A stretch of 64,000 bases of DNA from Bacteroidia bacterium (GCA_965216465.1 CBDCFW010000003.1:288001-352000); one strand, 5' to 3'; shown: positions 1,931 through 17,867, numbered from the stretch's first letter. Made by a program: numbers and translations. Notes: generated by a model not told the origin, from the sequence alone.

Positions 1931-1932
1931 TC

Positions 1933-2175: not shown

Positions 2176-2354
2176 GTGATAATATACTGAAATTATATGT
2201 GAATTGGGTTATGTAAATAGATACAAATTGATATCTATTTATATGCAGTTTAATTTAAGGGATGGACGTAATATTGTTCACTGAATTGTAAAATGTTTTG
2301 GATATCCAAAACTTTGGAATGGATTTTGTACCTTTGTAACCGTTAAATAATACT

Positions 2355-2642
2355 ATGTCTAATAAAATAAGAGTAACTAATCATAAGGTCCTTGTGCTTT
2401 ATAGTTTTGATGAAGTAAATAAACTTTATACTCTTTCAACACTTGAAAGAGGAGGACCTCTTGTTGTGGATTCGGATTTCGAAACAGCTAAGAAAAAAAT
2501 GGCTGAGCAACTAATTGTTGTAAGCTCTCTTGGTAAATTAATGTTCTATGATAAATATAGGACTAATGAAGATAGGAAGACATCGTTGGCTAATAGTTTA
2601 GGGAAGGTTATAGAGGAGACGTATTTGGAACTTGTAGCATAG
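2355..2642 (+). CDS. Cargo protein, weakly HicB-like N-terminal fold
   Basis: Upstream TAccTTTG promoter motif; the pattern Y...LE.GG.LVV.SDFE.AKKKM.EQL recalls HicB. Confidence 0.5.
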   Translation: MSNKIRVTNHKVLVLYSFDEVNKLYTLSTLERGGPLVVDSDFETAKKKMAEQLIVVSSLGKLMFYDKYRTNEDRKTSLANSLGKVIEETYLELVA

Positions 2643-3152
2643 ATGTTAATTACCTATCGAGCACTAAGAGAACTTTTATATCAGAAATATGCAGAGAAGT
2701 CTCTGCAAGGAGTTATAGACGACTTTTCAGAATATTTTGATGAATCCCTCGCAACTGCAGAGCAGATTGAGGATTATGAGTATCTGTCAACATTCATTGA
2801 GAATAGAAAGGATATAGAAGAGAAATATCGTTTTTTCTGGAACTACAAGCAATGTTCGGTGCCAACGATGGTGGAGAAGCATGACTATTACACGGTTGAT
2901 GCATTATCAGTAATTGCTTATGATCATCCCGATATCGACGTAAGACATTTTGAACAGCTCATTGAAGAGATTGCAACAAGAGACAAGCACGATTTGGAGC
3001 AGTGGTTAGGTAGATTTAGAAGTTTGTACAAGGCTAGAGTAAATATTGGTAACGCGATACGAAGCTACAAATTAGGGTACATCGGAAGAAATGATCTTTG
3101 CTACTGCGGGAGTGGTAAGAAATACAAAAAGTGCCACGGGTTCAATAATTAA
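2643..3152 (+). CDS. Cargo protein with C-terminal SEC-C zinc-binding motif
   Basis: GRNDLCYCGSGKKYKKCHG. Confidence 0.85.
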   Translation: MLITYRALRELLYQKYAEKSLQGVIDDFSEYFDESLATAEQIEDYEYLSTFIENRKDIEEKYRFFWNYKQCSVPTMVEKHDYYTVDALSVIAYDHPDIDVRHFEQLIEEIATRDKHDLEQWLGRFRSLYKARVNIGNAIRSYKLGYIGRNDLCYCGSGKKYKKCHGFNN

Positions 3153-3296
3153 AACGATATCAAATCACTTTGTCCTGGAGCTGCTCGAGCTGAACAAATG
3201 ATATCAAATCCGTTTCCGGCGTCCAGGATCTCAGGGTAAATATGATATCAAATAACTTATCTGCAGCAGATCTGCAGCTGACCAAATGATATCAAA
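3151..3296. repeat. Four GATATCAAA repeats with exact 44-bp period
   Basis: Cores start at 3156, 3200, 3244 and 3288. Confidence 0.9.
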
Positions 3297-3383
3297 AGAA
3301 ATAACTATAGGTTTTGCTCCAATGTCTATATTTGAATGACATATTAAATTTGTTACGTAACATTAGGGATTGATGTGATCAAA

Positions 3384-3412
3384 TAAAAAGCCACCTGTAA
3401 AAGGTGGCTTTT
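3384..3412. terminator. Intrinsic terminator; inverted near-identical copy of 2147-2175
   Basis: taaaaagccacctgtaaaaggtggctttt, 28/29 identical to the reverse complement of 2147-2175. Confidence 0.8.
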
Positions 3413-3676
3413 CTGTTTTTAGATTAACTAAATCCATGCGAACATGGACAAAACCTTTAATGATCAAAAATAAAAGCCGTCTCCTCTGGAAACGGCAATT
3501 AATAAGGTTAGTTAGGTACTATTGCTAAATATAAACACGAAGATAACCTAAATGGTAACAAAACCTCCTGAATAATAGAAATGTATAGGAACTACTGAAT
3601 TAATTAGGTATACTTGATAGTCCTTAACTTATTTTACTACTGGTTATCTATTAATCAAAGTTGAGGTATTAACCCT

Positions 3677-3713
3677 AGGCCATCCCGAGTGGGGTTTTGG
3701 GATGGCCTTTTTT
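3677..3713 (+). terminator. Intrinsic terminator
   Basis: aggccatccc...gggatggcct followed by a T run. Confidence 0.75.
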
Positions 3714-3725
3714 GTTAATTAGAAA

Positions 3726-3965
3726 TCACTCAATCTTCTCAAGCTCCTTTAAATGATAAAAGAAGTTCTTAGTCTTGTCCTTGACATCTCTAAGTTGAAT
3801 TTCAAGTGATGAATTCTCATCGGTCAAAGACTTAATCCTATCACACATGGGAATGTAGGAGCGAAGCAATAATGCAAAAATTTCTGAATTGGTTTTAATG
3901 TAGGTCTTAGCTTTAATAGCCTCTAACTGTTTAGTCTGTTGATCTGTTAATCTTGATACTAGCAT
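3726..3965 (-). CDS. Probable ribbon-helix-helix/CopG-like DNA-binding protein with coiled-coil tail
   Basis: MLVSRLTDQQ..QLE.IK....IKTNSEIFALLLR; homologous to 7132-7368, which fixes the start. Confidence 0.7.
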   Translation of the reverse strand: MLVSRLTDQQTKQLEAIKAKTYIKTNSEIFALLLRSYIPMCDRIKSLTDENSSLEIQLRDVKDKTKNFFYHLKELEKIE

Positions 3966-4168
3966 AAATAAAATTTTAACATGGTTAAACATTTTCGAGT
4001 AGACTCTCGATCTCTCGAAATCATAGGCATCCAAAGGCGTAAGTGAAAAGCAGTTGTCAATATAAATGAAGGGCAGTAGGGTATAGGCCAGTGTTTAAGC
4101 ATTGACAACAATGTTCACGGGCCAATTTTGCACTCTGATTATGAGAAAAGAATAGGTATCTTTGGAGT

Positions 4169-4423
4169 GTGAGCAATAAAGAAAAGTTATCAGGTAAAGA
4201 GTTGACTATGTATAAGCAGATAGAAACAAACTATGAATATAATGGTAAAACCTTCAAAAATGATTATGTACACCAGATGAGCATTATAGGATATAAACGA
4301 ATAGAAATACCTGGTGTAGAGTTTATTGGTGTTGGTGGTCAGAATTATTTAGAAATCGAGAGGACATACAGAGATATGTTAGTCATGTTCTGCCAAGACC
4401 GAGGAATAACTGAGCTTGATTAA
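4169..4423 (+). CDS. Hypothetical protein
   Basis: 84-aa ORF with GTG start, preceded by TAtcTTTG. Confidence 0.55.
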   Translation: MSNKEKLSGKELTMYKQIETNYEYNGKTFKNDYVHQMSIIGYKRIEIPGVEFIGVGGQNYLEIERTYRDMLVMFCQDRGITELD

Positions 4424-4746
4424 TAAGGCAATTTAACACGTTTCAATTTCTTTGGCTTATCACCAATAGGGTTTGGCACAAACAATTGCTTAACATTCTC
4501 AAACACCTCAAAATGATGCAATAATTGCTCTTCTAAAGTTTCTATTTGCTTCTGAAGTGACATAATAGTGTCGAAATCTTCCATCGATCTACGCTGTAAT
4601 TTCATGTGCCGAATCAACATTCTTTCAACAATGTCATGTAATCCATTTGCATCATGATGGAAATATTTGAACTCTTTATAAGCTGCCTTAGCCTCATCAG
4701 AAAGCAGCGTAAATATTAGGGGTTTACCACATTCTTCACATTTCAT
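4420..4746 (-). CDS. Putative regulator with coiled coil and N-terminal CxxC
   Basis: Weakly similar to 11810-12172 (F.Y.H, heptads) and in the same position. Confidence 0.65.
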   Translation of the reverse strand: MKCEECGKPLIFTLLSDEAKAAYKEFKYFHHDANGLHDIVERMLIRHMKLQRRSMEDFDTIMSLQKQIETLEEQLLHHFEVFENVKQLFVPNPIGDKPKKLKRVKLPY

Positions 4747-4871
4747 AGACAGCAAAAAACTAATCAGGATTTTGAATATTTTGTATATAAAAAGATGCAA
4801 GCTGTTGAAAACGTGTGAATTATCGACGAATGATAAAACTAATATTTGAGTTCGAAATCAAATTAGTTATC

Positions 4872-5021
4872 ATGGTATTAATACTTAATCAACGAGAAGC
4901 TCGTATGCTTAAACGTCTCATACAAGGATATGAAAGACGAACTCCTGCAAAACGTCAGAAGCGTAAAATCACTGAAGGATTAAAATTAAAACTTAATGAT
5001 AAAAAGAAAGCCGCTGCATAA
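4872..5021 (+). CDS. 49-aa basic protein, candidate antisense-regulated gene
   Basis: Positional and weak sequence homologue of 12253-12444. Confidence 0.6.
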   Translation: MVLILNQREARMLKRLIQGYERRTPAKRQKRKITEGLKLKLNDKKKAAA

Positions 5022-5041
5022 AACTATGCGAGCGGCTTTTT
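5007..5041. terminator. Bidirectional terminator
   Basis: aaagccgct-gcata-aaac-tatgc-g-agcggcttt with an A run on the left and a T run on the right. Confidence 0.75.
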
Positions 5042-5214
5042 AATTTCTTAAGCGGTACTTAATCAAATTTAGGTTCGAAATCAAATTTTATCATGTTGAC
5101 CGCTTAGATGTATAACTTCTAAAGTTATTCACTTTCAAATATAAAAGCTAAACAAATGTACGTGAATGGATTAGCCACGAATGTTAAAACGTTGTTAACA
5201 AAAGAGTTATTATT

Positions 5215-5242
5215 TGTGCCTATAATTTATATTCCGCTAACC
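5215..5242 (+). other. dif-like XerCD site with degenerate XerD arm (element 1/2 junction)
   Basis: TGTGCCTATAA-TTTATA-TTCCGCTAACC, 11-6-11 layout; compare E. coli dif GGTGCGCATAA-TGTATA-TTATGTTAAAT. Confidence 0.85.
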
Positions 5243-5349
5243 GCTTTAGCACCAAAAAGACAGCGTTATCAACGAATTGTGGACTATTCGATTCCAAATG
5301 TTGAAAGTGCAAAACATTGTTAACAATTAAGCACAAAGTATGTGTTTAA

Positions 5350-6600
5350 TTGAAAAATCAAAATAAAGGAGATTGGCAGCGTAAAATACTGCATTCAATA
5401 GAAGTAGACAGTTTGAAGCTCTCGTTTGAGCTTAACCACTACGAACCGTTAAATCAAATCAAAATTCTTGATACTCGTCTAGGTACTGAATACCGAAAAA
5501 TTACTATTGATGGTGAAGAGATGGACGAGAAGCTCTACAAGGAGAATGCTCGACAATATGGAGCAGACAAAGCACCAATTTATATGAGTTTGGTTGCACG
5601 TCAAGACTTAGCAACGAAAGAAGTCAAAACGTATCTAGTAATATTAATCAATTCTAAGCATTTAGGAGCGCATTATTTCAAAGGTATAAAACGTCATAAT
5701 GTTGGTAACATATACGATGCCATAATAGCGACAAAAGCCGTAAGAATGGATTACAGCATCTTTATGCAGGGCAAGGTTACAGACTGTGATTTTAAGATGG
5801 ATTACCAAATGGAGTTTCACGAATGGATTAAACTAAATGAATTTGCAAGAAAGAGGACTAAGTTGCACACTCGCAGCGATTCGGGATATACGAGGTTTCC
5901 AAAAAAGGATAACGGAATTGACCGTGAAAATTACAAAATGTATGGTACTCAATGGAGCTTTAGAACAACAACGAGTTTTGCAACTGCACCATATATTAAA
6001 ATGTATCACAAAGGGCTAGAAGCAGAACATAGAAGTTCAGAGTTTTTTTCTTCTTATGAATTTGAGGGTTACGGTAATACGGTGATAGATTATAGCGATA
6101 TAGTAAGAACTGAGTATACTATCAAAAACAAAAAGCATTTTAAACAAGCTGGGATGGTCAAAGATGACCAAGACAACACGCTTGAAAATATTCTAAACTT
6201 TAACTATGAAACAAAGCTAAGTGCTTTAATAGATGGCTTTGCTGCTCATTGGAAAAAAGAGAAAGCAAGAATTACACAAGTAACAGGCTTAAAAGGCGTT
6301 CAGTTGATGCTTGCCGCTTTAATAGATGACCAAGTTAAACAAGGCGGAAAGAGTAAGTCAGAATTAAGAGATACGGCTCTTTCACTTCTTCCAAAAAAGA
6401 ATCAAGAACGCTACAAGAAGCTGTTTGAAGAGGTGTGGAGATATCTAGCAATTGAAGAGGATTTTAGAGTTGAAGCAGAAAATAATGAAGCTGCATACAA
6501 TTGGTTTAAAATCTTGGTTGAGGGTTCAAAGAATACCAAACTAAGAGGAATGTTTACAGACGAAGCAACATATACGGAAAGATGGCACGAAGCAAGTTAA
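5350..6600 (+). CDS. Rolling-circle replication initiator (Rep_trans / gpII-X-like)
   Basis: Ordered motifs VDSLKLSF, VTDCDFKMD, IKMYHKGLE (catalytic Tyr) and IVRTEYTI. Confidence 0.75.
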   Translation: MKNQNKGDWQRKILHSIEVDSLKLSFELNHYEPLNQIKILDTRLGTEYRKITIDGEEMDEKLYKENARQYGADKAPIYMSLVARQDLATKEVKTYLVILINSKHLGAHYFKGIKRHNVGNIYDAIIATKAVRMDYSIFMQGKVTDCDFKMDYQMEFHEWIKLNEFARKRTKLHTRSDSGYTRFPKKDNGIDRENYKMYGTQWSFRTTTSFATAPYIKMYHKGLEAEHRSSEFFSSYEFEGYGNTVIDYSDIVRTEYTIKNKKHFKQAGMVKDDQDNTLENILNFNYETKLSALIDGFAAHWKKEKARITQVTGLKGVQLMLAALIDDQVKQGGKSKSELRDTALSLLPKKNQERYKKLFEEVWRYLAIEEDFRVEAENNEAAYNWFKILVEGSKNTKLRGMFTDEATYTERWHEAS

Positions 6601-6722
6601 GTAATTATTTCATTGGCAAAGATGGAAGGTTATATTTAAAGAAGTATGGGAGTGAATATAGTGTCAGAGGGTTTGCCAATTTAGGAGAACGGTTATTTGT
6701 GATAACAGATGGAAAAAATTAA
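6582..6722 (+). CDS. 46-aa hypothetical protein MARSKLSNYFIGKDGRLYLKKYG... (absent from the ORF track)
   Basis: Translated by hand; overlaps the rep 3' end and fills the gap to 6735. Confidence 0.55.
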   Translation: MARSKLSNYFIGKDGRLYLKKYGSEYSVRGFANLGERLFVITDGKN

Positions 6723-6734
6723 ATATTTAATAAA

Positions 6735-6965
6735 ATGTCAAAAGAAGATTTCAAAACAAAAACAAAGACAATGATTGAGAATTTCAATACTGCGTCAAAC
6801 GATGCTTGGGCGGAGTTTGAAGCTCGTACAGACTTCGATACGGTTCAAGAAAGAGAAGATGCAAGGCTACAAGTTGAGCAACAAATTAAAATCGACCATA
6901 AAAAGCTAAAAGAGGATATCAAAGCTGAAAAGGAGCTTTACAAGGCTGAAGCAAAGGCAGAATAA
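6735..6965 (+). CDS. Small helical phage protein
   Basis: Homologue of 1933-2118. Confidence 0.75.
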   Translation: MSKEDFKTKTKTMIENFNTASNDAWAEFEARTDFDTVQEREDARLQVEQQIKIDHKKLKEDIKAEKELYKAEAKAE

Positions 6966-6999
6966 GAGACTTATTTGTAATTCATGTTTGTTTAAAAGT

Positions 7000-7029
7000 A
7001 AAAGGCAGTCCGTAAATGGGCTGCCTTTT
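7000..7029. terminator. Bidirectional terminator
   Basis: aaaaggcagtcc-gtaaat-gggctgcctttt. Confidence 0.8.
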
Positions 7030-7034
7030 CTGTT

Positions 7035-7136
7035 TAAACGATATCAAAAAGTGAGTTCAGATCCTGGAAAAAACACTTGAAATGATATCAAATACTTTCT
7101 CCAGGAAAGATCTGCAGCTGATTAAATGATATCAAA
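7035..7136. repeat. Three GATATCAAA repeats with exact 44-bp period
   Basis: Cores start at 7040, 7084 and 7128. Confidence 0.9.
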
Positions 7137-7368
7137 TATCCATCATCTTCTTTAAATGGTAGGTAAAATCCTTTACGTTGTTTTTAATGGAATTGTTCTG
7201 TATTGATAAAGATGAATTTTCTTCTACCAAGTCTTTAATTCTAGATTGACTAGGTAAATAAGCACGTAAGCAAAGGGCAATAACATCTGAGTTGGTTTTA
7301 ATACCTGTATGCTCCTTAATGAGTTCAATTTGTTGTTTCTGTTCGTCTGTTAATCTTGATATAAGCAT
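7132..7368 (-). CDS. Probable RHH/CopG-like DNA-binding protein with coiled coil
   Basis: Clear homologue of 3726-3965. Confidence 0.7.
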   Translation of the reverse strand: MLISRLTDEQKQQIELIKEHTGIKTNSDVIALCLRAYLPSQSRIKDLVEENSSLSIQNNSIKNNVKDFTYHLKKMMDI

Positions 7369-7375
7369 GATATTA

Positions 7376-7579
7376 TTAATTATTAGGTGGTGTTATATAT
7401 CCAATACCGTTTTGAAAAAAGTGTTTTGCTGTACAAACAACATAGGGCTTTTTGTTAGGGTGCTTCTCGCTGTATCGGTTGCGAATAGTGCGTGTAAAAA
7501 TGAAGAGTTTTGGCTTTTGTGGTTGTGATGCTAAGAAAGTAGCAGCCTCGCTGTACGTTTCAAATTCAAATTGTGTCAT
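7376..7579 (-). CDS. Hypothetical phage protein
   Basis: Tightly spaced minus-strand operon. Confidence 0.6.
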   Translation of the reverse strand: MTQFEFETYSEAATFLASQPQKPKLFIFTRTIRNRYSEKHPNKKPYVVCTAKHFFQNGIGYITPPNN

Positions 7580-7585
7580 AATGAT

Positions 7586-7783
7586 TTATTTAATTTTTGC
7601 GGCTGTGAAAGATTTGAGGTATTCTAGGTTGTCAATAGCTTGGTTTAAGCTTGCTACTGAAAGGTTAAGGTAAATGGAAGAGGTGTATTCACGTCTTAAC
7701 GGTGCTTGTTCGGCATACTCGCGAATCAAGTCTCTTTTCATTTTAAGTGTGATTAGTGTGTCGTTGATTAAGTCGATTGTCAT
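7586..7783 (-). CDS. Hypothetical helical phage protein
   Basis: First gene of the minus-strand operon. Confidence 0.6.
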   Translation of the reverse strand: MTIDLINDTLITLKMKRDLIREYAEQAPLRREYTSSIYLNLSVASLNQAIDNLEYLKSFTAAKIK

Positions 7784-7924
7784 GTTTCAATTATTTAAAA
7801 AGTTATACTTCAGGCGTAAGCAATTGCAGACCTGCTTCGCTCCGCCAATATTTTTTTTCGGAAAAACCGAAATATGAAACAAACACAAGCAAAAAGGCTT
7901 TCATAGAACTATAAAAGAGGGGGA

Positions 7925-8300
7925 CAAAAGTTTATTCCGTCAGGATCAAACTTTTGGCAAGAGGGTAGTGGCTAGTGTTTATGCGTTCGACTGAAATCCG
8001 ACTTGCTTAAACTCGTTGAAATAATTCTTTTTCTCTGAAAAAATTATCCAATTATTACTACTGTAAAAATGTCGTTTGTGATACCCAATTAGGGTGTCAC
8101 AAATCTGCCCGAAATAGGGCTTAAAAATCCCAATTTTTCAAAATCGAAAAATCCCACCTTATGATGGTGGGGAATTTGCCTCAAATTTGAGGTTTTTGCT
8201 TTGTCCAAAAAACGGACGAAATCTGAGTCCTTTTTTTGGTGTTTTTGCAGACCAATATCGACCCGATTTTAAGGCTTGATTTGCTACTCAAGTAGCGAAA
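7925..8300. other. Hairpin-dense intergenic region, candidate single-strand origin or packaging signal
   Basis: Stems at 7925-7956, 8075-8103, 8107-8120, 8149-8177, 8179-8192, 8205-8239 and 8280-8299. Confidence 0.55.
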
Positions 8301-8431
8301 TAATCTCGGTCAATTTTTCATCATGATAATCAGCAACTTACCGGTTTTTGGGTTTTTTAAATTTTCATAACCCGATTTGCTGCCCTCTCTTTGTATTCAC
8401 AAAACGAAGTAAAAGAGTTAAAATTTAGAAT

Positions 8432-9169
8432 ATGGAAGTATTTAGCGGACAAATCCCTGCAACGGGAAAATTCGGAGAAAAACAACTAGAAACAAGACTT
8501 GGAGAGTTAATTTTCCAAATGTCGGGCGTGGGGTTATGTACACCTGCGAACTTGCGACTTGCAAAAATTCAGTTGACAAAGGTTGATAGAAAGACAGGGC
8601 AAAAGGAGTTTTTGCCAAAAATTGATTTGTATACGCTGTTTGAATTAACAGCACATCACGAGGGGCACTTTCAACAGTCTAATGATGCGGCTTTTGGAAT
8701 GGTAGATTTAACACCTTTTGGCTCTTTAGAGTTAAATAGTAGTGAATACCTGTCTTTAAGTGGAGAGGGTTTTCAGGACACTCTTCAGCTTGATATCTTC
8801 ACTCAAGAAGAACCGCACAAGGCTGAAAAGGCTCTAAAGTATGAAACAAATCATGTACCTGTTGGTACTGCTCCAAAAGATGTAAACTTGGGTTCAGTTG
8901 TGGCAATAGCTATGCCAACTGGCGAGGTTGATTATGTAGAAATTACCTATGCTAACGGTAAAACGATTAGAAAGGGTCAAGCAGAATTAACAGCAGAGCA
9001 GCTGAAACGAGACAATGTGATTGCGACAAGCAGCCTTACAGGCGGCACAATTACTATGAACTATATTGACTACTTCTACATAGAAGTAAGTGACGCTGTA
9101 AGTATGCGTTACAAGCCCGAGGGTTCAAACGCTCATGAAATTTACCTTGTTCGTGAGGTAACGGCATAA
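8432..9169 (+). CDS. Candidate major capsid protein (double jelly-roll)
   Basis: 245 aa, alternating beta-strand pattern, two repeated strand-turn-strand-helix units; first gene of the structural operon. Confidence 0.6.
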   Translation: MEVFSGQIPATGKFGEKQLETRLGELIFQMSGVGLCTPANLRLAKIQLTKVDRKTGQKEFLPKIDLYTLFELTAHHEGHFQQSNDAAFGMVDLTPFGSLELNSSEYLSLSGEGFQDTLQLDIFTQEEPHKAEKALKYETNHVPVGTAPKDVNLGSVVAIAMPTGEVDYVEITYANGKTIRKGQAELTAEQLKRDNVIATSSLTGGTITMNYIDYFYIEVSDAVSMRYKPEGSNAHEIYLVREVTA

Positions 9170-9258
9170 GAAATTCATTTATTTATTGGTTTAGGGTTCA
9201 GGAAGCGGGCAGTATACGGAGATAGTTAGCTGCCCGCAATTCCGAAAATAAAAAGCAG

Positions 9259-9666
9259 ATGGTGAGAGAAAAAAAGAGAAAAGGACTGTTTAACGGTCGA
9301 ATAAAAAAAGCATTGGGAAGCCAATTCAAAAGAAAGGTTGGCGGTACTAAGCTAGGTAATGCGGTAAGGGGTTTTGTACGAAACAAAACAGGCGGTTTGC
9401 TTGGCAACGGCTTATTGATGCTAAAAGAGAATGAAACAAAAGCAGAGACAGATGCAAAAGCAAGAGAAGTTCTTACCGATACTGCGGCGGCTGCGACTGA
9501 GAAATTTGAGAGTTCTCAGAGAAAAGCTCTTGAAGATGTTGAAAGAAAGGCAACGATGGAAAGACTCAAAAAAATAGGCTTTACGGTTGTACTTCCTTTA
9601 TTAGTCGTGGCGGGTGTAGTGGTTTACATATTCAAAAACAAAAAAAAGTCTAAAAGACGTAGATAA
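9259..9666 (+). CDS. Basic N-terminal, C-terminal-TM protein (candidate DNA-binding virion/membrane protein)
   Basis: K/R/G-rich N-terminus, TM segment VVLPLLVVAGVVVYIF, KKKSKRRR tail. Confidence 0.7.
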   Translation: MVREKKRKGLFNGRIKKALGSQFKRKVGGTKLGNAVRGFVRNKTGGLLGNGLLMLKENETKAETDAKAREVLTDTAAAATEKFESSQRKALEDVERKATMERLKKIGFTVVLPLLVVAGVVVYIFKNKKKSKRRR

Positions 9667-9668
9667 TT

Positions 9669-10043
9669 ATGGCAGGAAATAGCAAGAAATCAAATAACAA
9701 GCACAGCAAAAAAAGCGGGTGCAAAGTCATAACGCCGTACGATGGTGGAGATGGAAGTCTTTTCATTAACGGTTGGAAAGTTGAGAAAGGTGTACTATGG
9801 AGTATCACTGTAAATCAAGCAAAGAAAGATGGCAAGTATATGCCTGTTTCAGAAAGTAATTCGGGTAAAATGTGGATGAATGTGATGGTTGTTGCAAAAG
9901 CACCGTTACAAGAGAACAGATATGTTTACGGCTTGTGTAACTTAGAAAACAATAAGGTGTATATCAAAGAGTGGAATTGGATAATGAATCCAAAAGGTGG
10001 TAAAGGTGGTTACTGCGGAAAACACATTTCTAACGATTATTAA
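9669..10043 (+). CDS. Beta-rich aromatic/basic phage protein (candidate ssDNA-binding protein)
   Basis: W/Y/K-rich strands and NP.G..GGY.G C-terminus; the function is inferred. Confidence 0.65.
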   Translation: MAGNSKKSNNKHSKKSGCKVITPYDGGDGSLFINGWKVEKGVLWSITVNQAKKDGKYMPVSESNSGKMWMNVMVVAKAPLQENRYVYGLCNLENNKVYIKEWNWIMNPKGGKGGYCGKHISNDY

Positions 10044-10051
10044 AAACGGCT

Positions 10052-10276
10052 ATGAAATGGGTTAAATCAGTATCAGACTTTTTCGATAAGGTAGTCAAGT
10101 ATGGAAAAAAGCTAAATACGATTGTAAAGGTTTTTGACTGGTTGAATGGCGTTATTCAGTACGCTAAAACTACGTGGGATGAAAAGTTTAATGAATCTAT
10201 CCGAGAAGTGATTGAGGATATAAAAGAAGATATCGCAGAAGAGGTAACAGAAAAAACAGAAACAGCAAATGGTTAA
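10052..10276 (+). CDS. Small amphipathic-helix phage protein
   Basis: Homologue of 66-257. Confidence 0.75.
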   Translation: MKWVKSVSDFFDKVVKYGKKLNTIVKVFDWLNGVIQYAKTTWDEKFNESIREVIEDIKEDIAEEVTEKTETANG

Positions 10277-10457
10277 TAGAAGAAATACAAGAGGGAAATC
10301 AAACGGTAAAAAGTGGGTTTTATGGGTAATAGTTGGAGTTGTCCTCATTGTAGCACCGTTTTTCATCTTCAAGAAGTTGAGAACGAAAGCAAAAGAGGCA
10401 ATCAAGAAAGTAGCAGCGAAGTTTTCAAAAAAAAAGGCAACAGAAGCAGTAGCCTAA
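10269..10457 (+). CDS. Single-TM small protein
   Basis: WVLWVIVGVVLIVAPFFIF TM segment; homologue of 257-349. Confidence 0.75.
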   Translation: MVNRRNTRGKSNGKKWVLWVIVGVVLIVAPFFIFKKLRTKAKEAIKKVAAKFSKKKATEAVA

Positions 10458-10837
10458 CAAAGAATTTCACGCTTAAAGAATTTGCTTGCAAATGTGGTGC
10501 GGCTGTTCCTGACAAGTATTACAACAACGTCAAAACACTAGCAGAAAATTTACAAGTCCTTAGAGACCATTTTAACGGTGCTAGACGAATAAAAGTAAAC
10601 TCAGGATATAGAACACCTGACTATAACAAAAGGGTAGGGGGTTCTCCAAAATCACAACATTTACTTGCAAAAGCTGCGGATATCGAAATTGACGGTTACA
10701 CGACAAAAGAAGTAGCAGAGATTATTGAAATGCTAATACAAGAGGGCAAAATGAAGCAGGGCGGTATTGGTATTTATAACACTTTTGTTCACTACGATAT
10801 CAGAGGTAAGCGGGCTAGATGGGATTTGAGAAAATGA
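10313..10837 (+). CDS. Peptidase M15A (D-Ala-D-Ala carboxypeptidase family) endolysin; true start uncertain
   Basis: NFTLKEFACKCG, NSGYR...N..VGG...SQH....AAD and FVHYD.RG zinc-peptidase motifs. Confidence 0.9.
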   Translation: MGFMGNSWSCPHCSTVFHLQEVENESKRGNQESSSEVFKKKGNRSSSLTKNFTLKEFACKCGAAVPDKYYNNVKTLAENLQVLRDHFNGARRIKVNSGYRTPDYNKRVGGSPKSQHLLAKAADIEIDGYTTKEVAEIIEMLIQEGKMKQGGIGIYNTFVHYDIRGKRARWDLRK

Positions 10838-11031
10838 GTTATACAAGAGATATGATAGTCGGAAGTGTTGGAGCGGGTTCCATTGAATTGGTAGACCAAA
10901 TCGCGGCACATCCGACTACTTTTAGCATGATACTCCAAGCAATTATTGCTCTTGGTACTATTGCTAAAATAGGTAACAATTGGTTGAAAGAACGTAAAAA
11001 GAAAAAAGAAGATGTGCGGCGAAGTAAGTAA
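10834..11031 (+). CDS. Small membrane protein, holin-like
   Basis: ATGA-coupled to the lysin stop; similar to 1294-1539. Confidence 0.65.
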   Translation: MSYTRDMIVGSVGAGSIELVDQIAAHPTTFSMILQAIIALGTIAKIGNNWLKERKKKKEDVRRSK

Positions 11032-11380
11032 CGGTAATTTTGAGATATACGACTCAATTGCTAACGTGTTGGAAATTCCATTTAATCACATTATCTGTGC
11101 AGGATTGTCTAACGGTCAACAAATTGGTGGTTTGCAAAACATCGATTCTGACCCTGAAGTAATATCAAGCGTTGGCGGTCTAAATGAACATGAGATATTC
11201 ATTAATAAAATGGTGGGTTATCCTCAAAGTGGAGATACACCCGACTTCTCAGGTTTATTAAGCAAAATGCCATTGCACGCTTATCAGCCAAAAGGCACTA
11301 GAGACGTTACAAATATTAACTTAATGAATTCGGCTTGGAATGGTAAATTCTTGGTATGGGTTTGTAAAAATGATAACTAA
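11012..11380 (+). CDS. Conserved phage protein (possibly structural)
   Basis: Homologue of 1574-1930. Confidence 0.75.
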   Translation: MCGEVSNGNFEIYDSIANVLEIPFNHIICAGLSNGQQIGGLQNIDSDPEVISSVGGLNEHEIFINKMVGYPQSGDTPDFSGLLSKMPLHAYQPKGTRDVTNINLMNSAWNGKFLVWVCKNDN

Positions 11381-11389
11381 AAAATTACT

Positions 11390-11815
11390 ATGGTTGGAAA
11401 AATAAAACAAGGTGTACAGATGGTAAGTAAGGTTAATCCAATGTATTTAATTGGCGGTTTATTACTATTTGTGTTTGTCTTCTTAGGCAAAAGAATAAGA
11501 GAAAGATTCAATACAGCAAGAACCGTTAACGAGTGGTTTGGGACAAAGAATTTGAAAGAGGGTAGCGACGGCGAAAATATCTCGCTAAGTGCTATTGCAT
11601 ACGAAATTTATGATGCGTTTTACAATAACGATTATTTAGGATTGACAGAGGATGAAGCTGCGGCAATAGCAGCCGTTCAAAAGGTGCATCCAAGAGATAT
11701 GAAGCAGCTCGCAAAGGAGTATGCTAAAATAGGGGGTCGAAATAAAGTGTTAATGCACGATTTGAATAAATACTTGTCTTCTGCTCAAAAATCAGCCATT
11801 AAAGATTGGTTATAA
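11390..11815 (+). CDS. N-terminal-TM protein with annexin-repeat-like C-terminal domain
   Basis: A..IYDAF...G.TEDEAA.I......QL...Y......L..DL...LS pattern. Confidence 0.6.
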   Translation: MVGKIKQGVQMVSKVNPMYLIGGLLLFVFVFLGKRIRERFNTARTVNEWFGTKNLKEGSDGENISLSAIAYEIYDAFYNNDYLGLTEDEAAAIAAVQKVHPRDMKQLAKEYAKIGGRNKVLMHDLNKYLSSAQKSAIKDWL

Positions 11816-12172
11816 TGTTCTTTGACGTTGTGAGTTTGGCTCTTGATTTAACACTTGGCGAGTTAGTGCATCAGGTTCTAACAGGTTGAGCAACAACTTA
11901 ACAAGTCGTTGTTTAAATTGGTGTTCAAAATTGGAAGTTTCAGAAAGTTGTCTTTGCAATTCTTCGATATGAGACTCCAATTTATCAACATCCTTATAGT
12001 GGTTCATGTTTTTATTTTGAACTTCAATATAGCGGTCAATTAGGTGTCTAAATGCGAGTGTTGTATCATAGCCGTGCAAGTAGCGAAATTGCTCAACTAC
12101 ACGATTTTGATGAGGTTCAAGTCCATGTATTTCAAATTTTTTAGATAGTGTGTATTTCCTTTTCTTAGTCAT
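11810..12172 (-). CDS. Putative regulator with coiled coil
   Basis: Weak homologue of 4420-4746, divergent from 12253. Confidence 0.65.
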   Translation of the reverse strand: MTKKRKYTLSKKFEIHGLEPHQNRVVEQFRYLHGYDTTLAFRHLIDRYIEVQNKNMNHYKDVDKLESHIEELQRQLSETSNFEHQFKQRLVKLLLNLLEPDALTRQVLNQEPNSQRQRTL

Positions 12173-12252
12173 TTATTGTGGATAAGTAGTCACGGCAAAG
12201 AAATGAAAAACTTATAAGATTTGAAGTAGCAAAACAATTAAAATTTAAGTGA

Positions 12253-12444
12253 ATGACTATATCGAAAAATAATGTCTCGCTGTGCATTTCATATCAAGCA
12301 GCTAAGGAATTAAGAAGAGATTTACAATTTGCCAAATCAAGGCGAAAGTTTCCAAGTCGTTATGCTGATAGCAATTTGGAGAAAGTTAATAAGAGTATTA
12401 ACCGAGCTGAAAATAAAAAGGCTGCTCTAAAGAGAACAGCCTAA
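12253..12444 (+). CDS. 63-aa basic protein, candidate antisense-regulated gene
   Basis: Positional homologue of 4872-5021. Confidence 0.6.
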   Translation: MTISKNNVSLCISYQAAKELRRDLQFAKSRRKFPSRYADSNLEKVNKSINRAENKKAALKRTA

Positions 12445-12500
12445 ATATTTTATTGGAGCATTAAGCAAATGTTAGCAAAACAATTTAATAGCTCCAAAAG
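12411..12500 (-). ncRNA. Candidate ~90-nt antisense sRNA
   Basis: Minus-strand TAACTTTG at 12509-12502, hairpin 12453-12497, terminator 12419-12442 with minus-strand U tract. Confidence 0.45.
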
Positions 12501-12584
12501 ACAAAGTTAGCGTTTAACCGCTTAATTGTTTAACAAATGTATTTCGGTGTATCATATAAGCAAAATGTTGATTACTAACAAATG

Positions 12585-12612
12585 TTAGCCTATAATTTAT
12601 ATTATGTTAACC
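12585..12612 (+). other. dif: dif site (XerCD), right boundary of the island
   Basis: TTAGCCTATAA-TTTATA-TTATGTTAACC; XerD arm 9/11 identical to E. coli TTATGTTAAAT. Confidence 0.88.
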
Positions 12613-12774
12613 ATTGCAGAACAAGGCATACCAATGGATCATATTATGCACCCCTATCATTGTTCTCTATAGGTATCAATGATTAACCTCCATTAATTAA
12701 GGATTGAGATGTTCTCAACTCCGTTAGATGTAGTTTGAGTTGGAGAGTGAGTTTTGAGTAAATGATTCAGAATC

Positions 12775-12930
12775 CTAACCAATATCAAATTCGCGTATAA
12801 TAGAAAAGGAGGCTCTTTGAAAAACCTCCCCTTCGATTAGTTATGGTTAATAACTGTCTTTATGTTAACCAAAATGATATGGACAGGAGGCTCTTTGAAA
12901 CACCCCCCATCCAATTTTGGTTAATAATTA
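12775..12930. repeat. Tandem pair of related hairpin units
   Basis: aggaggctctttgaaa at 12807 and 12886, each inside a taacca...tggtta stem. Confidence 0.6.
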
Positions 12931-12940
12931 TCTTGATGTC

Positions 12941-14143
12941 TTATTCATTGTCGCTAATATATGCTTTTATTTCATTGTAGTCGTCCATGCGGCCTAATTG
13001 TGCATATATTTTCTTCATTGTTTTGGCTAAATCTAATCTTTCTTCATCGCCCATATCGTTGTTGTTATTGAAAACATTCTCGAATTGAACAATTGCTTCA
13101 CCATACATGGTGTTGATTTTACCTTCGTAAACCGCAATCTCACTTGGTTTGTAGATGTTCTTTTCGTTCATCTCATCTACCAAATCACCAATTTTAGTTA
13201 GGTACATAACTCCTTTATTATAAGCAGCATCGTAGTACTCAGGATCTATTTCTAAAATCTTGTCGTAGTCTGCTCCTGCTTTTTCGAGGTCACCCAATCC
13301 TTCATAGCTAATCGCTCGTGCGAAGTAGTAAATGGTGTTTCCTGGATCGTCTTCGATTGCGATATTTAACTTGTTAATCAACTCTTCACTTCTACCTTGC
13401 TTCAGATAAATATCAAGCTCCTGATTGATTAATGTTTTATCGGTTTCATTTAACTCTTTACCGTTAGAAATAACCTCTAAAGCCTTAGCTGTATCTCCTT
13501 CTTGTAAGTGAATTAATGCCAAGTTACTAAATAGCGCAGGATCTGAAGAACCTTTCTCAATCAGTGAGTTTAACGATTTTTTAGCACCAGCCTTATCTCC
13601 CATTTCAATCGCAGTGAAAGCCATCATTTGTTCAATAAGTTCAGCGGTTAAGTTGTTTCGCTTCAATAATCCCTCAGTATCATATTCCATTAAAGGAAGT
13701 GTTTTCGCGAAATAATCATTCGCCACTTTAAAGTCCCTCGCTTGGTAAGCTGTAAACGCCTTATTGTATAAACCAATTGCAACGTTCAATAAATGACCTT
13801 TTGCTTCTTCAGTATATTTATTCTTTGCATCTGTTTTAATTGCATTCTGAAATGATTCTAGAGCAATGTCTATCGCATTTGGGGTTGCTTGAGTTAACTC
13901 GCTGTTAACACCCGCAATCTTTAAATACAACAATCCTTTGTAGAACCACATCTTCGGAGAATTTGAAGTTTTTGGATGCGTAGATGCCTCAGTAATAAGC
14001 TCTAGACACTTCTGCAAATCCTTGTCGGTATCATCAACGGTGTGATCAACCAAAATCATTTTGGCCGTCTCCACATTGAAGTTTTGAGCATAACTCATTA
14101 CTCCTACCAATAGCATTCCTGCTAACACTGCAACTTTCTTCAT
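12941..14143 (-). CDS. Secreted tetratricopeptide repeat protein
   Basis: Signal peptide MKKVAVLAG..., TPR motifs; lies directly downstream of gyrA. Confidence 0.9.
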   Translation of the reverse strand: MKKVAVLAGMLLVGVMSYAQNFNVETAKMILVDHTVDDTDKDLQKCLELITEASTHPKTSNSPKMWFYKGLLYLKIAGVNSELTQATPNAIDIALESFQNAIKTDAKNKYTEEAKGHLLNVAIGLYNKAFTAYQARDFKVANDYFAKTLPLMEYDTEGLLKRNNLTAELIEQMMAFTAIEMGDKAGAKKSLNSLIEKGSSDPALFSNLALIHLQEGDTAKALEVISNGKELNETDKTLINQELDIYLKQGRSEELINKLNIAIEDDPGNTIYYFARAISYEGLGDLEKAGADYDKILEIDPEYYDAAYNKGVMYLTKIGDLVDEMNEKNIYKPSEIAVYEGKINTMYGEAIVQFENVFNNNNDMGDEERLDLAKTMKKIYAQLGRMDDYNEIKAYISDNE

Positions 14144-14156
14144 ACTAAATTTCATT

Positions 14157-16736
14157 TTAATCATTGTTTTCTGTTTCATTATTATCATCAGCAGATTCCG
14201 TGCCATTATTTGCGTCCGCACCCTCTCCTGCTGTTTCATCAGTTACAACATTTCCTTCAGCATCAAGAATTTCTTCATCCTCTTCTTCTACTTTAGGAAC
14301 TTTTGCTACTGATGCTATGTCGTCTTTGTCACGAACTTTAATCAATCGAACTCCTTGTGTTGCTCTTCCCATAACTCGAACATCTTCCATCTTCATTCTT
14401 ATGGTGATTCCAAGCTTGGTGATAATCATCAAGTCGTTTTCATCTGTTACATCTTTTATAGAGATTAAAGCACCTGTTTTGTCGGTGATACTCAAGGTTT
14501 TAACACCTTTTCCTCCCCTACCCGTAATTCGGTAATCGTCGATGTCTGTACGTTTGCCATATCCTTTTTCAGACACCACCATAATGCTTGTATCTTCAGC
14601 ACTTTCAGGCACGCAAACCATTCCGATTACTTCATCATTTTCATCTTCAAGCCTCACTCCTCTTACTCCGGCTGCTGTTCTTCCCATTGGTCGAACTGTG
14701 TTCTCGTTAAAACGAATTGCTTTACCCGATTTCTTAGCCATTAAGATCTCTGCCGTACCGTCAGTCAGTTTAGCTTCTAACAAGGTGTCACCATCTTTAA
14801 CGGTGATTGCATTAATACCATTAGTTCTTGGTCGAGAGTATGCCTCCAAAGAAGTCTTCTTAATTGTACCCTTTTTAGTACACATTACGATGTAATTGCT
14901 GTTCACATACTCTTCGTCTTTCAAGTTACCAGTTGCCACAAACGCACGTACCGAGTCATCTGAAGGTATGTTAATCAAGTTTTGGATTGCTCTTCCTTTA
15001 GATACTTTCCCGCCTTCTGGTATTTCGTATACCTTCATCCAGAAACATCTACCTTGGTCAGTAAAGAACAACATGTAGTTGTGCGTCATGGTCACAAACA
15101 AGTGCTCAACAAAGTCTTCGTCTCTGTGCTTCACTCCTCTGTTACCGACTCCTCCTCTACTTTGTGTTTTGTATTCAGACAGCGGAGTACGTTTCACGTA
15201 ACCCATGTGCGAAATGGTCACTACCATTTCTTCATTGGCAATTAAATCTTCAATATTGATTTCGCCAGCGTCGAGCTCAATTTGAGTTCTTCTTTCGTCG
15301 CCGTACTTATCTCTAATTTCTAACAACTCATCTTTAATGATGGTCATTCTTCTATTCTTGTCAGCTAAGATGTCTTTCAAATCAGCAATGGTTTCCATTA
15401 ATTGTCTATGCTCTTCTCTAACCTTGTCTCTTTCAAGTCCAGTTAACTTTTGAAGTCGCATATCCAAAATGGCTTTAGCTTGAATCTCAGACAGGCTAAA
15501 CGTGCTTATTAAGCCATTTCTAGCTTCTTCTACAGTCTGACTGCCTCTAATCAGCTTAATTACCTCATCAAGGTTGTCAATAGCAATTAACAAGCCTTCT
15601 AAGATGTGTGCTCGTTTCTCAGCTTCTTTCAGTAAGTACTCTGTTCTGCGAACAACAACTTCGTGACGGTGATCTACATAGTGACTGATCATCGACTTAA
15701 GATTCAACATCTCTGGTCTACCATTCACCAAAGCAATGTTATTTACACTGAAACTGGTTTGTAGCGGTGTGTACTTGTAAAGCTTATTCAGAACGATGTT
15801 TGGAATTGCATCACGTTTTAAATCGAAAACAATTCTTAATCCCTGGCGACCACTCTCATCCCTAACTTCAGAAATACCTTCAATCACCTTGTCGTTAACC
15901 AAGTCAACGGCTTTAACGATGATTTGTGAAGGACTTACTTGGTAAGGAACTTCAGTAATGATTATCTGCTCTCTTCCCGTTTTGGTCACATCGAATTCGG
16001 CTTTACCCCGCATTACGATTCGACCTCTACCCGTTTCAAAAGCTTGCTTCACTCCTTCTGTACCATAGATGATACCTCCGGTTGGAAAATCAGGAGCCTT
16101 CACATAATTGATTAACTCAGACACTTCAATCTCTGGATTATCGATGTAGGCAACTGTACCATCAATTACTTCTGTAAGGTTGTGTGGAGCCATGTTTGTA
16201 GCCATACCTACCGCAATACCCGCTGCACCGTTTACCAATAAACTTGGAATTCGAGCAGGGAGTACAGTCGGCTCAGACAAACTATCATCAAAGTTTGGTC
16301 TGAAGTCTACAGTATCTTTATCAATGTCGGCTAGCATTTCTTCCGCTAGCTTACGCATTCTTGCCTCTGTATAACGCATTGCTGCAGGAGGATCGCCATC
16401 GATAGAACCAAAGTTACCTTGGCCATCTACCATGGGATATCGCAGACTCCAATCTTGAGCCATACGTACCATAGTATCGTAGACCGATGTGTCACCGTGA
16501 GGGTGATACTTACCAAGCACCTCTCCCACGATTCTTGCAGATTTTTTATACGGTCTGTTGCTGGCTAAACCCAGTTCGGTCATACCATACAACACCCTTC
16601 TATGTACAGGTTTTAAACCATCTCTTACATCAGGTAATGCTCTCGAAACAATTACTGACATCGAATAATCGATGTAGGCTGTTTTCATTTCATCCTCGAT
16701 GTTAATAGGAATTATTTTTTCGTTTTCCGAATTCAT
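14157..16736 (-). CDS. gyrA: DNA gyrase subunit A
   Basis: [29 protein letters not shown], GyrA-box QSRGGVG. Confidence 0.98.
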
Positions 16737-16974
16737 TCAATAAATGATTAATTAAGGGCTGCAATCTATACGCAAAACCTATACATTAACTACATTACAA
16801 CGGCAAAATACCCACAATTAACCTACAATTTTGGGGATAAATTGACCTGTGTCAGTTCTGAATTCACAAGTTGTTGGTTTTAACAGACTAACGCAAACCA
16901 AAACCACATAAAAGAAGCTCGTTTGCACTTTGATAATTAAGCACATACGAGCTTTAAAGTTTTATGTTCAAGAG

Positions 16975-17832
16975 CTAGTAGGTTGCGACGAAACTTCCAC
17001 CAGTAATGGAAACGGTATTTCCATCTTTCTCGGCCTCAAAACTAAAGGTTCCTTTTATCACTCCAGAAATGTCGTCGAACTCGGTAATATTGATGGTTCC
17101 ATCCGTGGGAGTATAGAATTCGGTTGATGATGCATTGTACTGAGCACGATAATCTCCGAAGAATGAAATTTCATGTTCGCCTACGGTTGCATTATCTGGT
17201 ACCACAATGCCAATAGCCGTGTTGTTAGGGCCATTTCCAACTGTGTTGATCATACCTAAACCTTTAACAGCAGTAACATTAGTCGCAGACCATGCTGAAC
17301 CATCGACCGTTGCCGTCATGGTTTTCCCAGGAGTTGGAGGCAATTCTGTGCTGAATGGAAGGTCAACAAATTCGATACTAACACTAACGATTTTATCGTC
17401 CAATATACGTCTGGCCTCAGTAACGATTGAACCACTACATTTTTTAGAAGTTTTATCAAACTTGGTGAACGACATTTCTCCCGGGAACGGCGTAGATCCG
17501 TCAAACTGATTGGTGGTGTAAGCACTCTCACCATTAGGCACATACGCTAATGCATCAGTTTCGTCTTCATAGTAAAATTGGTAAGGAAGTCCTACCTCAT
17601 ATCCATCAAAAAGAAGCATGCGAACAGTGATAATATCACCACTATTTGTTTCCATAGCCATTACAAAAGTTTCGTTATTGTAATAGCCAGCGCTTTTGGT
17701 TTTTACTGATAGTGTTGCACCATCAATTTTAGCAGTAAACGAAGCTCCTGGAGCAGCGTCTTCGCTTTTGCATCCCGACATGGCAAAAAGGGAAGCAATC
17801 GTAATCATTGTAAGGATTTTAATTGTTTTCAT
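16975..17832 (-). CDS. Lipoprotein with two repeated beta domains (DUF6252-like)
   Basis: Lipobox MSGC; FTAKIDG / MTATVDG duplication; GTFSF...ITGGSF C-terminus. Confidence 0.75.
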   Translation of the reverse strand: MKTIKILTMITIASLFAMSGCKSEDAAPGASFTAKIDGATLSVKTKSAGYYNNETFVMAMETNSGDIITVRMLLFDGYEVGLPYQFYYEDETDALAYVPNGESAYTTNQFDGSTPFPGEMSFTKFDKTSKKCSGSIVTEARRILDDKIVSVSIEFVDLPFSTELPPTPGKTMTATVDGSAWSATNVTAVKGLGMINTVGNGPNNTAIGIVVPDNATVGEHEISFFGDYRAQYNASSTEFYTPTDGTINITEFDDISGVIKGTFSFEAEKDGNTVSITGGSFVATY

Positions 17833-17867
17833 ATCTGAATTTTAGAGTTAGAGCGAATATAAGAAAA

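Follow-up and report, generated by a model that had tools for sequence, protein, structure and literature searches.

Phages that combine a double jelly roll (DJR) capsid with a single-stranded DNA (ssDNA) genome link the ssDNA and double-stranded DNA (dsDNA) virus worlds, and they are known from two structures (FLiP and phiCjT23), a few Cellulophaga isolates and prophages of Flavobacterium. According to Kejzar et al. 2022 (PMC9719478), phiCjT23 is a temperate lipid-containing phage with 7,642 nt of ssDNA, and 57 phiCjT23-like Flavobacterium prophages of 6,021–8,407 bp carry a replication initiator (Rep) gene followed by the major capsid protein (MCP) gene, with dif motifs on both sides; integration by XerC/XerD is inferred there. 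The Cellulophaga phages phi18:4, phi12:2, phi12a:1 and Omtje form the ICTV family Obscuriviridae (ICTV 2025, PMC12451628), and phi18:4 is reported to have an internal membrane (PMC11946311). The FLiP group is described with an M13-like initiator and no packaging ATPase (Yutin et al. 2018, PMC5894146), FLiP itself with a canonical jelly-roll penton and a separate spike (PMC9719478), and FLiP-like putative prophages are described in Sphingobacteriia in the 2026 FLiP-2 paper (PMC13269007). Here we analyze a 64,000-nt stretch of the 3.23-Mb genome of a Bacteroidia bacterium (G000:C3:288001-352000, called the window) that contains an element of this kind, named E2 below, directly downstream of a second provirus, E1.

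E2 occupies window positions 5218–12612 (7,370 nt). With a probability of about 0.85, it is the integrated 7.37-kb genome of a temperate tailless icosahedral phage of the phiCjT23 / Cellulophaga phi18:4 (Obscuriviridae) group. An earlier note had read positions 8432–11815 as the virion module of a FLiP/phiCjT23-like phage and as a new member of a poorly sampled group. That interval is the virion and lysis module only. The kinship stands for the phiCjT23 / Cellulophaga phi18:4 capsid family and, at the sequence level, fails for FLiP, which the capsid profile does not reach at E ≤ 1. The new membership is correct, but the kind of element was already known: dif-integrated, dif-flanked phiCjT23-like prophages of Flavobacterium have been published (PMC9719478). 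What is new here is the host order, the deep-branching capsid protein, the unrecognized Rep type and the mixed array at dif.

The major capsid protein and the virion genes

At 8432–9169 lies the gene for a 245-aa DJR capsid protein, a homologue of phiCjT23 P5 that is predicted to trimerize. The protein has no Pfam match, a word-indexed search of 5.8 billion clusters returned only the protein itself (485 candidates), and no relative was found in the genome contigs searched. HMMER over 1.84 billion cluster representatives gave 82 relatives of 229–312 aa at E ≤ 1e-3 (9 at E ≤ 1e-10), the closest being 32% identical to the E2 MCP. Profile A1 was made from 72 of these 82 together with the E1 MCP; ten long partial matches (P0017, 21, 33, 42, 45, 53, 59, 61, 66 and 67) were excluded. 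Against the PDB, A1 gives a single match, 7zzz_J, the phiCjT23 MCP (E 1.4e-29, positions 1–237 against 1–231 of 239 residues), and the FLiP MCP chain is not reached at E ≤ 1. Entry 7ZZZ is assigned to phiCjT23 in the data-availability section of PMC9719478. All E1 and E2 open reading frames (ORFs) were also compared locally with the proteins of the phiCjT23 and phi18:4 records, with E-values scaled to this small database; here phmmer pairs the E2 MCP with phiCjT23 gp05 (E 7.4e-5) and phi18:4 gp4 (E 5.9e-8). An MCP of the profile family from a Flavobacteriaceae provirus shares 62.6% identity with the phiCjT23 MCP and 31.6–32.4% with the structural protein in 11 records of Cellulophaga phages.

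The AlphaFold2 model of the E2 MCP, calculated from the family alignment, has a pLDDT of 96.4 and a pTM of 0.92 and contains 19 strands and 3 helices, in agreement with the beta-rich product that the earlier note had described. The best Foldseek match in the PDB is the phiCjT23 capsid protein 7zzz_A (E 2.7e-25, TM-scores 0.84/0.85, 17% identity), followed by the FLiP MCP 5oac_A (E 1.2e-12, TM-scores 0.68/0.56), PRD1/PR772 P3, PM2 P2 (2vvf_A, E 1.6e-9), STIV and then PBCV-1 capsid proteins; the strong matches through rank 44 are viral capsid proteins throughout. The proposed fold of two jelly rolls with a capsid match is what the model gives. The two similar units that had been pointed out (residues 45–72 and 167–190) occupy equivalent places in the two jelly rolls and consist of strand, turn, strand and helix (strands 45–52 and 56–65 with helix 66–74; strands 166–173 and 178–182 with helix 183–192). 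An hhalign comparison of the N-terminal with the C-terminal half of the family pairs exactly these units, with an E-value (0.024) and probability (2%) that are not significant alone. The jelly-roll duplication is seen in the predicted fold and is not proven by sequence. The three-copy complex prediction scores 0.94 and the best control 0.00, on a calibration in which 20 of 30 solved pairs and 1 of 23 single chains came up to the mark; contact agreement between runs is at least 94% and partner pLDDT at least 92. The similar phiCjT23 trimer (7ZZZ) is already solved, and the result may merely reflect likeness to it. With 17% identity to phiCjT23 and the same minimal DJR, the protein offers a distant sequence for finding the residues that the fold needs.

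The features of E2 and its borders are listed by window position and strand.

1–5217, plus: right-hand 5.2 kb of the E1 provirus; the E1 Rep, the E1 MCP and the left dif-like site lie upstream of the window (L003:8926-11317)
5218–5242, plus: dif-like hybrid site GCCTATAATTTATATTCCGCTAACC, junction of E1 (left) and E2 (right); first 14 nt as in the true dif, far arm degenerate
5350–6600, plus: putative replication initiator, 416 aa, divergent Rep_trans-like fold (predicted), putative catalytic Tyr219
6735–6965, plus: 76-aa ORF (ORF call), no Pfam or PHROGs family match
7039–7134, no strand: three 8-bp palindromes with 44-nt spacing, putative operator or iteron array
7132–7368, minus: 78-aa putative repressor, 55% identical to a 102-aa E1 protein (3726–4034)
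7376–7783, minus: two small ORFs of 67 and 65 aa, no Pfam or PHROGs match, probably part of a regulatory module
8432–9169, plus: MCP, 245 aa, DJR, ATG start (profile, fold and trimer prediction)
9259–9666, plus: 135-aa virion protein homologous to phi18:4 gp5, with a C-terminal transmembrane (TM) segment before a poly-basic tail
9669–10043, plus: 124-aa protein, homologue of phiCjT23 gp07 and phi18:4 gp6 (structural)
10052–10276, plus: 74-aa ORF, like the 63-aa E1 ORF (66–257) at the equivalent position; weak match in genome G025 (E 3e-4)
10269–10457, plus: 62-aa ORF with one strong TM segment (hydropathy), candidate membrane protein or holin
10313–10837, plus: lysin, peptidoglycan peptidase M15_3, 174 aa (Pfam, PHROGs)
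10819–11031, plus: 70-aa ORF, weakly hydrophobic, below the TM threshold (hydropathy)
11012–11380, plus: 122-aa protein, candidate vertex protein, conserved with E1 (1460–1930) and the G025 element
11390–11815, plus: 141-aa protein, TM segment at the N-terminus, homologous proteins in the elements of G075 and G087
11810–12172, minus: 120-aa ORF (ORF call), putative regulator, weak family matches only
12253–12444, plus: 63-aa basic ORF (ORF call), then a hairpin at 12410–12451 (hairpin scan)
12588–12612, plus: chromosomal dif GCCTATAATTTATATTATGTTAACC, right end of the inserted array (motif search, empty sites, skew)

After the MCP gene the same strand carries ORFs of 135, 124, 74, 62, 174, 70, 122 and 141 aa up to position 11815, and those of the virion and lysis module are all open and tightly packed. 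The two genes that follow the MCP gene encode homologues of phi18:4 virion proteins, and the second also matches phiCjT23 gp07. In the same small-database comparison, the 135-aa protein matches phi18:4 gp5 (E 3.7e-10) and the 124-aa protein matches phiCjT23 gp07 (E 2.8e-5) and phi18:4 gp6 (E 1e-5). PHROGs profiles name three consecutive genes 'virion structural protein' (20547, E 1.8e-5; 20088, E 5e-7; 20522, E 0.017). The record of phi18:4 annotates gp4 to gp6, together with the lysin, as virion components by tandem mass spectrometry. E2 and phi18:4 have the gene order in common: MCP, TM virion protein, third virion protein, small proteins and lysin.

The gene content also bears out what had been noticed downstream of the first gene. 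Three ORFs (135, 62 and 141 aa) have a Kyte-Doolittle segment of at least 1.6, corresponding to the several small TM proteins. The lysin at 10313–10837 matches Peptidase_M15_3 (E 2.5e-20, 73.1 bits against a cut-off of 23.2) and the endolysin family phrog_894 (E 7.3e-38). Terminase, portal, tail, Zot and FtsK families are absent from the 26 ORFs scanned with Pfam and PHROGs, and a Walker-A motif is missing from all six frames of the inserted array (22 kb). The same scans find no recombinase or integrase among the element ORFs; sigma-70 promoter and terminator scans are uninformative for the host phylum. The lysins of E1 (GH108) and E2 (M15) have unrelated catalytic domains and share a short Cys-rich N-terminus with CPHC (window 250–300 and 10313–10370), which suggests a conserved N-terminal lysin module with exchanged enzymatic domains. 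The 62-aa ORF, a textbook TM segment with charged flanks, shares about 145 nt with the beginning of the lysin ORF, in a different frame, and both may be real overlapping genes.

The putative replication initiator and the putative regulatory block

The 416-aa protein at 5350–6600 has no Pfam, NCBIfam or relevant PDB match by sequence, nor a relevant PDB match by profile. Searching the phage records by tblastn gave none, and the word-indexed search returned only the protein itself (2,969 candidates). It is 30% identical to the 397-aa E1 Rep, encoded just before the E1 MCP gene. Four database relatives besides the query were found, one of them named by its source as a hypothetical protein of Changchengzhania lutea, and a further copy is present in G025, a genome of the same genus. 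With the AlphaFold2 model as query, Foldseek ranks three rolling-circle initiators first (4cwe, 4cwc and 4cij, E 1.7e-4 to 1.7e-3) and TATA-binding proteins after them. VIA-align superposes the model on RepD/RepDE (4cij, 4cwc and 4cwe) with Z 8.1–8.4 and 217–226 residues aligned of 265–270, and the next rows have Z ≤ 5.2. Set against four PF02486-type Reps, those of phiCjT23, of phi18:4 and of two Flavobacteriaceae proviruses, the family reaches E 2.5e-4 in hhalign at a probability of 43%. The alignment pairs the invariant Tyr219 (KMYHKGLE) with the tyrosine of the R-x-Y-x-K motif, and the conserved R253 and E255 with the R-x-E of the PF02486-type Reps. We read the protein as a very divergent Rep_trans-like initiator with Tyr219 as its putative catalytic residue. 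Other initiators occur beside related capsid proteins: in the sister family, the G075 and G087 elements have E2-like capsid proteins and Rep_1 (PF01446; E 4.1e-12 and 1.7e-16), and a Flavobacteriaceae provirus has PF02486. At least three initiator types are thus exchanged while the capsid module is retained.

In E2, Rep and MCP are set apart by a 1.8-kb, putatively regulatory block with three small minus-strand genes. The N-terminus of the 78-aa protein looks like a ribbon-helix-helix (RHH) domain, which makes it a putative repressor; the sole Pfam hint is VapB_antitoxin (E 0.068). The E2 palindromes stand at an exact 44-nt spacing, CGATATCA at 7039 and TGATATCA at 7083 and 7127. The same spacing is found in E1 at 3155, 3199, 3243 and 3287, again with CGATATCA once and then TGATATCA. 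In both elements the palindromes (3155–3294 and 7039–7134) sit in 55-nt repeats that are 69–80% alike. TGATATCA occurs 104 times in the 3.23 Mb. We take the palindromes as putative operators for the shared small protein, with an origin function also possible.

The dif site, the inserted array and the host range

In a dif site a central hexamer stands between one recombinase arm and a second. Such a layout is drawn in Fig. 1c of Kejzar et al. (PMC9719478). Within 5 mismatches, the 25-nt dif-like motif is found at exactly three sites in the 3.23-Mb genome: GCCTATAATTTATAGTATGTTCCTA at C3:284926, upstream of the window, GCCTATAATTTATATTCCGCTAACC at window 5218 and GCCTATAATTTATATTATGTTAACC at window 12588. 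These sites bound E1 (8,292 nt) and E2 (7,370 nt). Their first 14 nt are common to all three, and the second arm is intact at 12588 only. All 5 genomes of the genus that were searched contain a single copy of the motif, and a reversed control gave 0 matches. Three congeners with no MCP (G027, G031 and G044) have dif between homologues of the left and right flanks of the window and carry no insert. The right flank in the window encodes a tetratricopeptide repeat (TPR) protein and gyrA. On the left, flank homology stops at C3:278361, and therefore about 22 kb of DNA is inserted in this genome, in the order E0 (6.5 kb, no viral genes), E1 and E2. G027, a closed genome, has a GC skew of +0.036 over 200 kb left of dif and of −0.069 over 200 kb right of it, with the cumulative maximum within 40 kb before dif; the site is the replication terminus there, as expected of dif. 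The gene dnaA was dropped as an origin marker: in G027 it lies 0.57 Mb from dif (2.87-Mb genome), and in the genome of the window it lies on contig C5, off the skew minimum (contig C6, ~760 kb). The host XerD scores 342.6 bits, above the cut-off, and a XerC-like gene scores 273.8 bits, below it; both lie on other contigs.

The stretch is contained in three sequencing runs of one sample, as contigs at a depth of ~2–3, with parts uncovered in X2 and X3; no RNA run is listed as containing it. The order E1, E2, chromosome is independent of one assembly because it recurs in a public-run contig of 15,289 nt, which reaches from window 1340 to 14000 and takes in a part of E1, the whole of E2 and the right flank. 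In contigs from two runs of one sample, the base after dif is joined to a point 582 nt further on, in the 3' part of the TPR gene (window 12611–13194; L105 17611–18194); the shorter side of this join measures 27 letters and may stem from another organism or a repeat. The interval from dif to the TPR gene contains two 32-nt direct repeats, 84% alike, at 12807–12838 and 12885–12916, and part of this ~230-nt stretch is not matched at the congeners' empty sites.

E1 (C3:284926-293217, that is L003:8926-12000 and window 1–5217) is a different provirus of the same group. Its 397-aa Rep is encoded first, the gene stopping 384 nt short of that for the 243-aa MCP (profile E 5.1e-51); further products are a TM virion protein, a lysin with GH108 and PG_binding_3 domains (250–906) and a SEC-C-motif protein (2643–3152). 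Across its genes it has ~60% amino-acid identity to a provirus in G025, and its MCP has one weak match in IMG/VR (31% over 131 residues, in a 126-kb contig). The E0 block (L003:~2400-8925, C3:~278400-284925) encodes two Por_Secre_tail proteins of the type IX secretion system (T9SS) and five ORFs with no family match. It has no viral hallmark gene, is absent from the empty dif sites of the three congeners and has no clear left dif-like site, with a possible relic at L003:2417-2437. Two unlike proviruses and a non-viral insert thus stand in a row at dif, a shared landing site, which raises the question of how a provirus exits.

Related elements are found in other genomes. G075 carries two tandem E2-like copies of 7,941 nt with 99.975% identity that end at a dif-like site (L017, G075:C10:13001-33000, positions 2872–18719); such near-identical copies are a sign of recent activity in the group. 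The elements of G075 and G087 (L018) also carry short DNA-methyltransferase-like ORFs. In G025 a second dif-flanked element adjoins the E1-like provirus (L019, G025:C8:168001-187000, positions 11816–18889). Its products are an S8 subtilase (773 aa), an AAA ATPase (369 aa) and a protein of 555 aa, and the element may be a defence-type island at the same Xer site.

The MCP profile is rare in the host order (4 of 121 genomes at E ≤ 1e-5) and in the host family (4 of 66 at E ≤ 1e-3; the match in G050 is weak, falls within a frame of 965 aa and is probably spurious). Of 401 genomes sampled evenly from the phylum, 5 match including that of the window, the other four all being in one family, f4 (4 of 28). 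This family includes G361, whose Rep is the protein that a source assigns to Changchengzhania lutea, G154 (MCP 62.6% identical to phiCjT23) and G164 (MCP nearly identical to that of phiCjT23). Because it holds these three, f4 is Flavobacteriaceae, related to the genome of the window at class level only. The host GyrA has at most 86% identity to any record found, the two closest being at 86% and 72%. A quick maximum-likelihood tree of 81 MCPs unites the isolates with the three Flavobacteriaceae proviruses in one clade (SH-aLRT 100%). The E1 MCP groups with G025 and P0060 (100%), and the E2 MCP is an unplaced long branch (length 1.72) in the other, 58-row part, outside the isolate clade. No description of phiCjT23-type proviruses outside Flavobacteriaceae was found in the open-access literature, which is not proof of absence. 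The locus extends the group beyond Flavobacteriales and widens its host range.

Weighing of the readings and comparison with known systems

By analogy with phiCjT23, FLiP and phi18:4, we infer an active phage whose virion would package circular ssDNA from rolling-circle replication. The capsid trimers would build a pseudo-hexameric lattice, and an internal membrane may form around the small TM proteins, with the basic tail of the 135-aa protein facing the DNA. Host XerC/XerD would insert the genome through a phage site in which one dif arm and the central region are copied and the second arm is degenerate. Lysogeny may be controlled by the small minus-strand RHH-like proteins acting on the 44-nt-phased TGATATCA palindromes.

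Several results weigh against reading E2 as a phage of the phiCjT23 / phi18:4 group. The E2 MCP has no tblastn match at E ≤ 10 among 50,697 phage records and no relative in IMG/VR, and in a single-sequence phmmer search of the PDB the phiCjT23 'Major capsid protein P5' comes third (E 0.023, positions 13–221 against 11–215 of 239 residues), after two spurious matches. A genome-wide search with PF02486 touches neither the E1 nor the E2 Rep locus, and the cut-off of the Rep_trans model is not reached. The Rep model, from a 7-sequence alignment, is of middling quality (pLDDT 71.5, pTM 0.71), and Z ~8 is the level at which VIA-align warns of common arrangements. On the contig of the window the cumulative skew rises to the dif site and is flat after it, not clearly negative, which is compatible with a terminus but weaker than in G027. 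No circular E2, attP or empty-site joint is seen in the contigs at depth 2–3, which cannot exclude it. Finally, phmmer finds no homologue of the phiCjT23 spike/penton gp13 in E2 or E1 at E ≤ 0.01, and E2 could be incomplete or have another vertex protein. This gene is poorly conserved: even where phiCjT23 gp13 has a match, in two Flavobacteriaceae proviruses, the E-values are no better than 9e-17 and 8e-13. In the search for a vertex protein, the 122-aa protein and the profiles A5 and A6 of the 122-aa and 124-aa families have no relevant PDB match, and the ESM Atlas gives no usable lead.

Some of these points would also fit a phiCjT23-like element by descent that is now a defective, trapped remnant, which its degenerate XerD-side arms would hold fast in the chromosome, with no working vertex protein and no infectious particles. 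The missing spike homologue, the degenerate phage-side dif arms on both elements, the orphan long branch of the MCP, its absence from IMG/VR and the lack of a circle junction in the shallow contigs are what such a remnant would give. The open and closely packed module ORFs speak against decay, as do the confident MCP model with its predicted trimer and the tandem copies in G075, and the spike is the most variable gene among the known relatives; we regard a remnant as improbable. A small dsDNA provirus of the corticovirus (PM2) type is a good deal less likely still. Like the E2 protein, PM2 P2 is an MCP of small size with a DJR, and it matches the model; PM2-group elements too use rolling-circle initiators (Yutin et al. 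2018, PMC5894146). Against this stand the absence of any packaging ATPase family or Walker-A motif in any frame, the phiCjT23 MCP as the only PDB sequence homologue, and the gene order of phi18:4, recorded as a 6.5-kb ssDNA phage. PM2 has a genome of roughly 10 kb, and E2 at 7.4 kb lies below that size. That the 245-aa protein is a cellular or other non-capsid jelly-roll protein, present in a mobile island by chance, is hardly credible: cellular DJR homologues do exist (PMC8812541), but the sole PDB sequence relative is a capsid protein, the fold matches down to rank 44 are viral capsids and the neighboring genes are homologous to virion proteins. A microvirus had also been considered and is ruled out by the DJR capsid fold, with no microvirus families matched.

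The reading of E2 as a phiCjT23 / phi18:4-type phage can tentatively be carried further. E2 and a large uncultured part of the MCP tree might represent a separate family-level lineage of membrane-containing DJR ssDNA phages in Bacteroidia outside Flavobacteriales. Such a lineage would have interchangeable initiators (Rep_trans, Rep_1 and a Rep_trans-like family of about seven sequences) and a novel vertex protein, and would use dif as a stacking site for unlike Xer-dependent elements (virus, virus and non-viral island), with the degenerate second arms hindering reversal.

Compared with known initiators, the 416-aa Rep has its only clear fold matches in the Rep_trans proteins RepD/RepDE of staphylococcal and Geobacillus plasmids (4CWC, 4CWE and 4CIJ) and shares the Tyr-x-Lys motif alignment with the phiCjT23 and phi18:4 Reps. 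Unlike Rep_trans, it lies below Pfam detection and has an extra helical C-terminal third. With FLiP (Finnlakeviridae; 5OAC), E2 has in common the DJR MCP, the lack of a packaging ATPase and presumably the ssDNA genome. Unlike that of E2, the 310-aa FLiP MCP is beyond the A1 profile at E ≤ 1, the likeness being one of fold only, and the Pfam scan finds no M13-like initiator among the E2 ORFs.

In its mode of integration E2 resembles the Xer-dependent integrative elements (IMEX), among them the ssDNA Vibrio phage CTXphi, which have no recombinase of their own, reside at dif, have a degenerate second arm and form tandem arrays (comparison in PMC9719478). E2 lies at the chromosomal dif of a host with XerD and a XerC-like gene and encodes no recombinase. 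Unlike CTXphi, it is an icosahedral DJR virus and not a filamentous inovirus, and its array joins unlike elements. CTXphi replicates across two identical origins, and because the array here joins unlike elements, replication of that type cannot be assumed.

The isolates of Obscuriviridae are lytic 6.5-kb ssDNA phages with a PF02486 Rep and a glucosaminidase lysin, whereas E2 has an M15 lysin and a non-PF02486 Rep. E2 has their gene order and homologues of phi18:4 gp4, gp5 and gp6; the likeness is one of remote homology in core proteins. From phiCjT23, E2 differs in an MCP that is 17% identical in the structural alignment and falls outside the isolate clade, in a Rep that PF02486 does not recognize, in the 1.8-kb block between Rep and MCP, in the M15 peptidase lysin, in the gp13 homologue not found at E ≤ 0.01, in a host of another Bacteroidia order and in its place within an array of unlike elements. 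With the phiCjT23 group it shares a minimal DJR MCP of ~240 aa, a Rep gene upstream of the MCP gene, a gp07 homologue, flanking dif sites and the lack of a packaging ATPase and of an integrase of its own, and the lengths of E1 (8,292 nt) and E2 (7,370 nt) both fall within the 6,021–8,407 bp of the Flavobacterium prophages.

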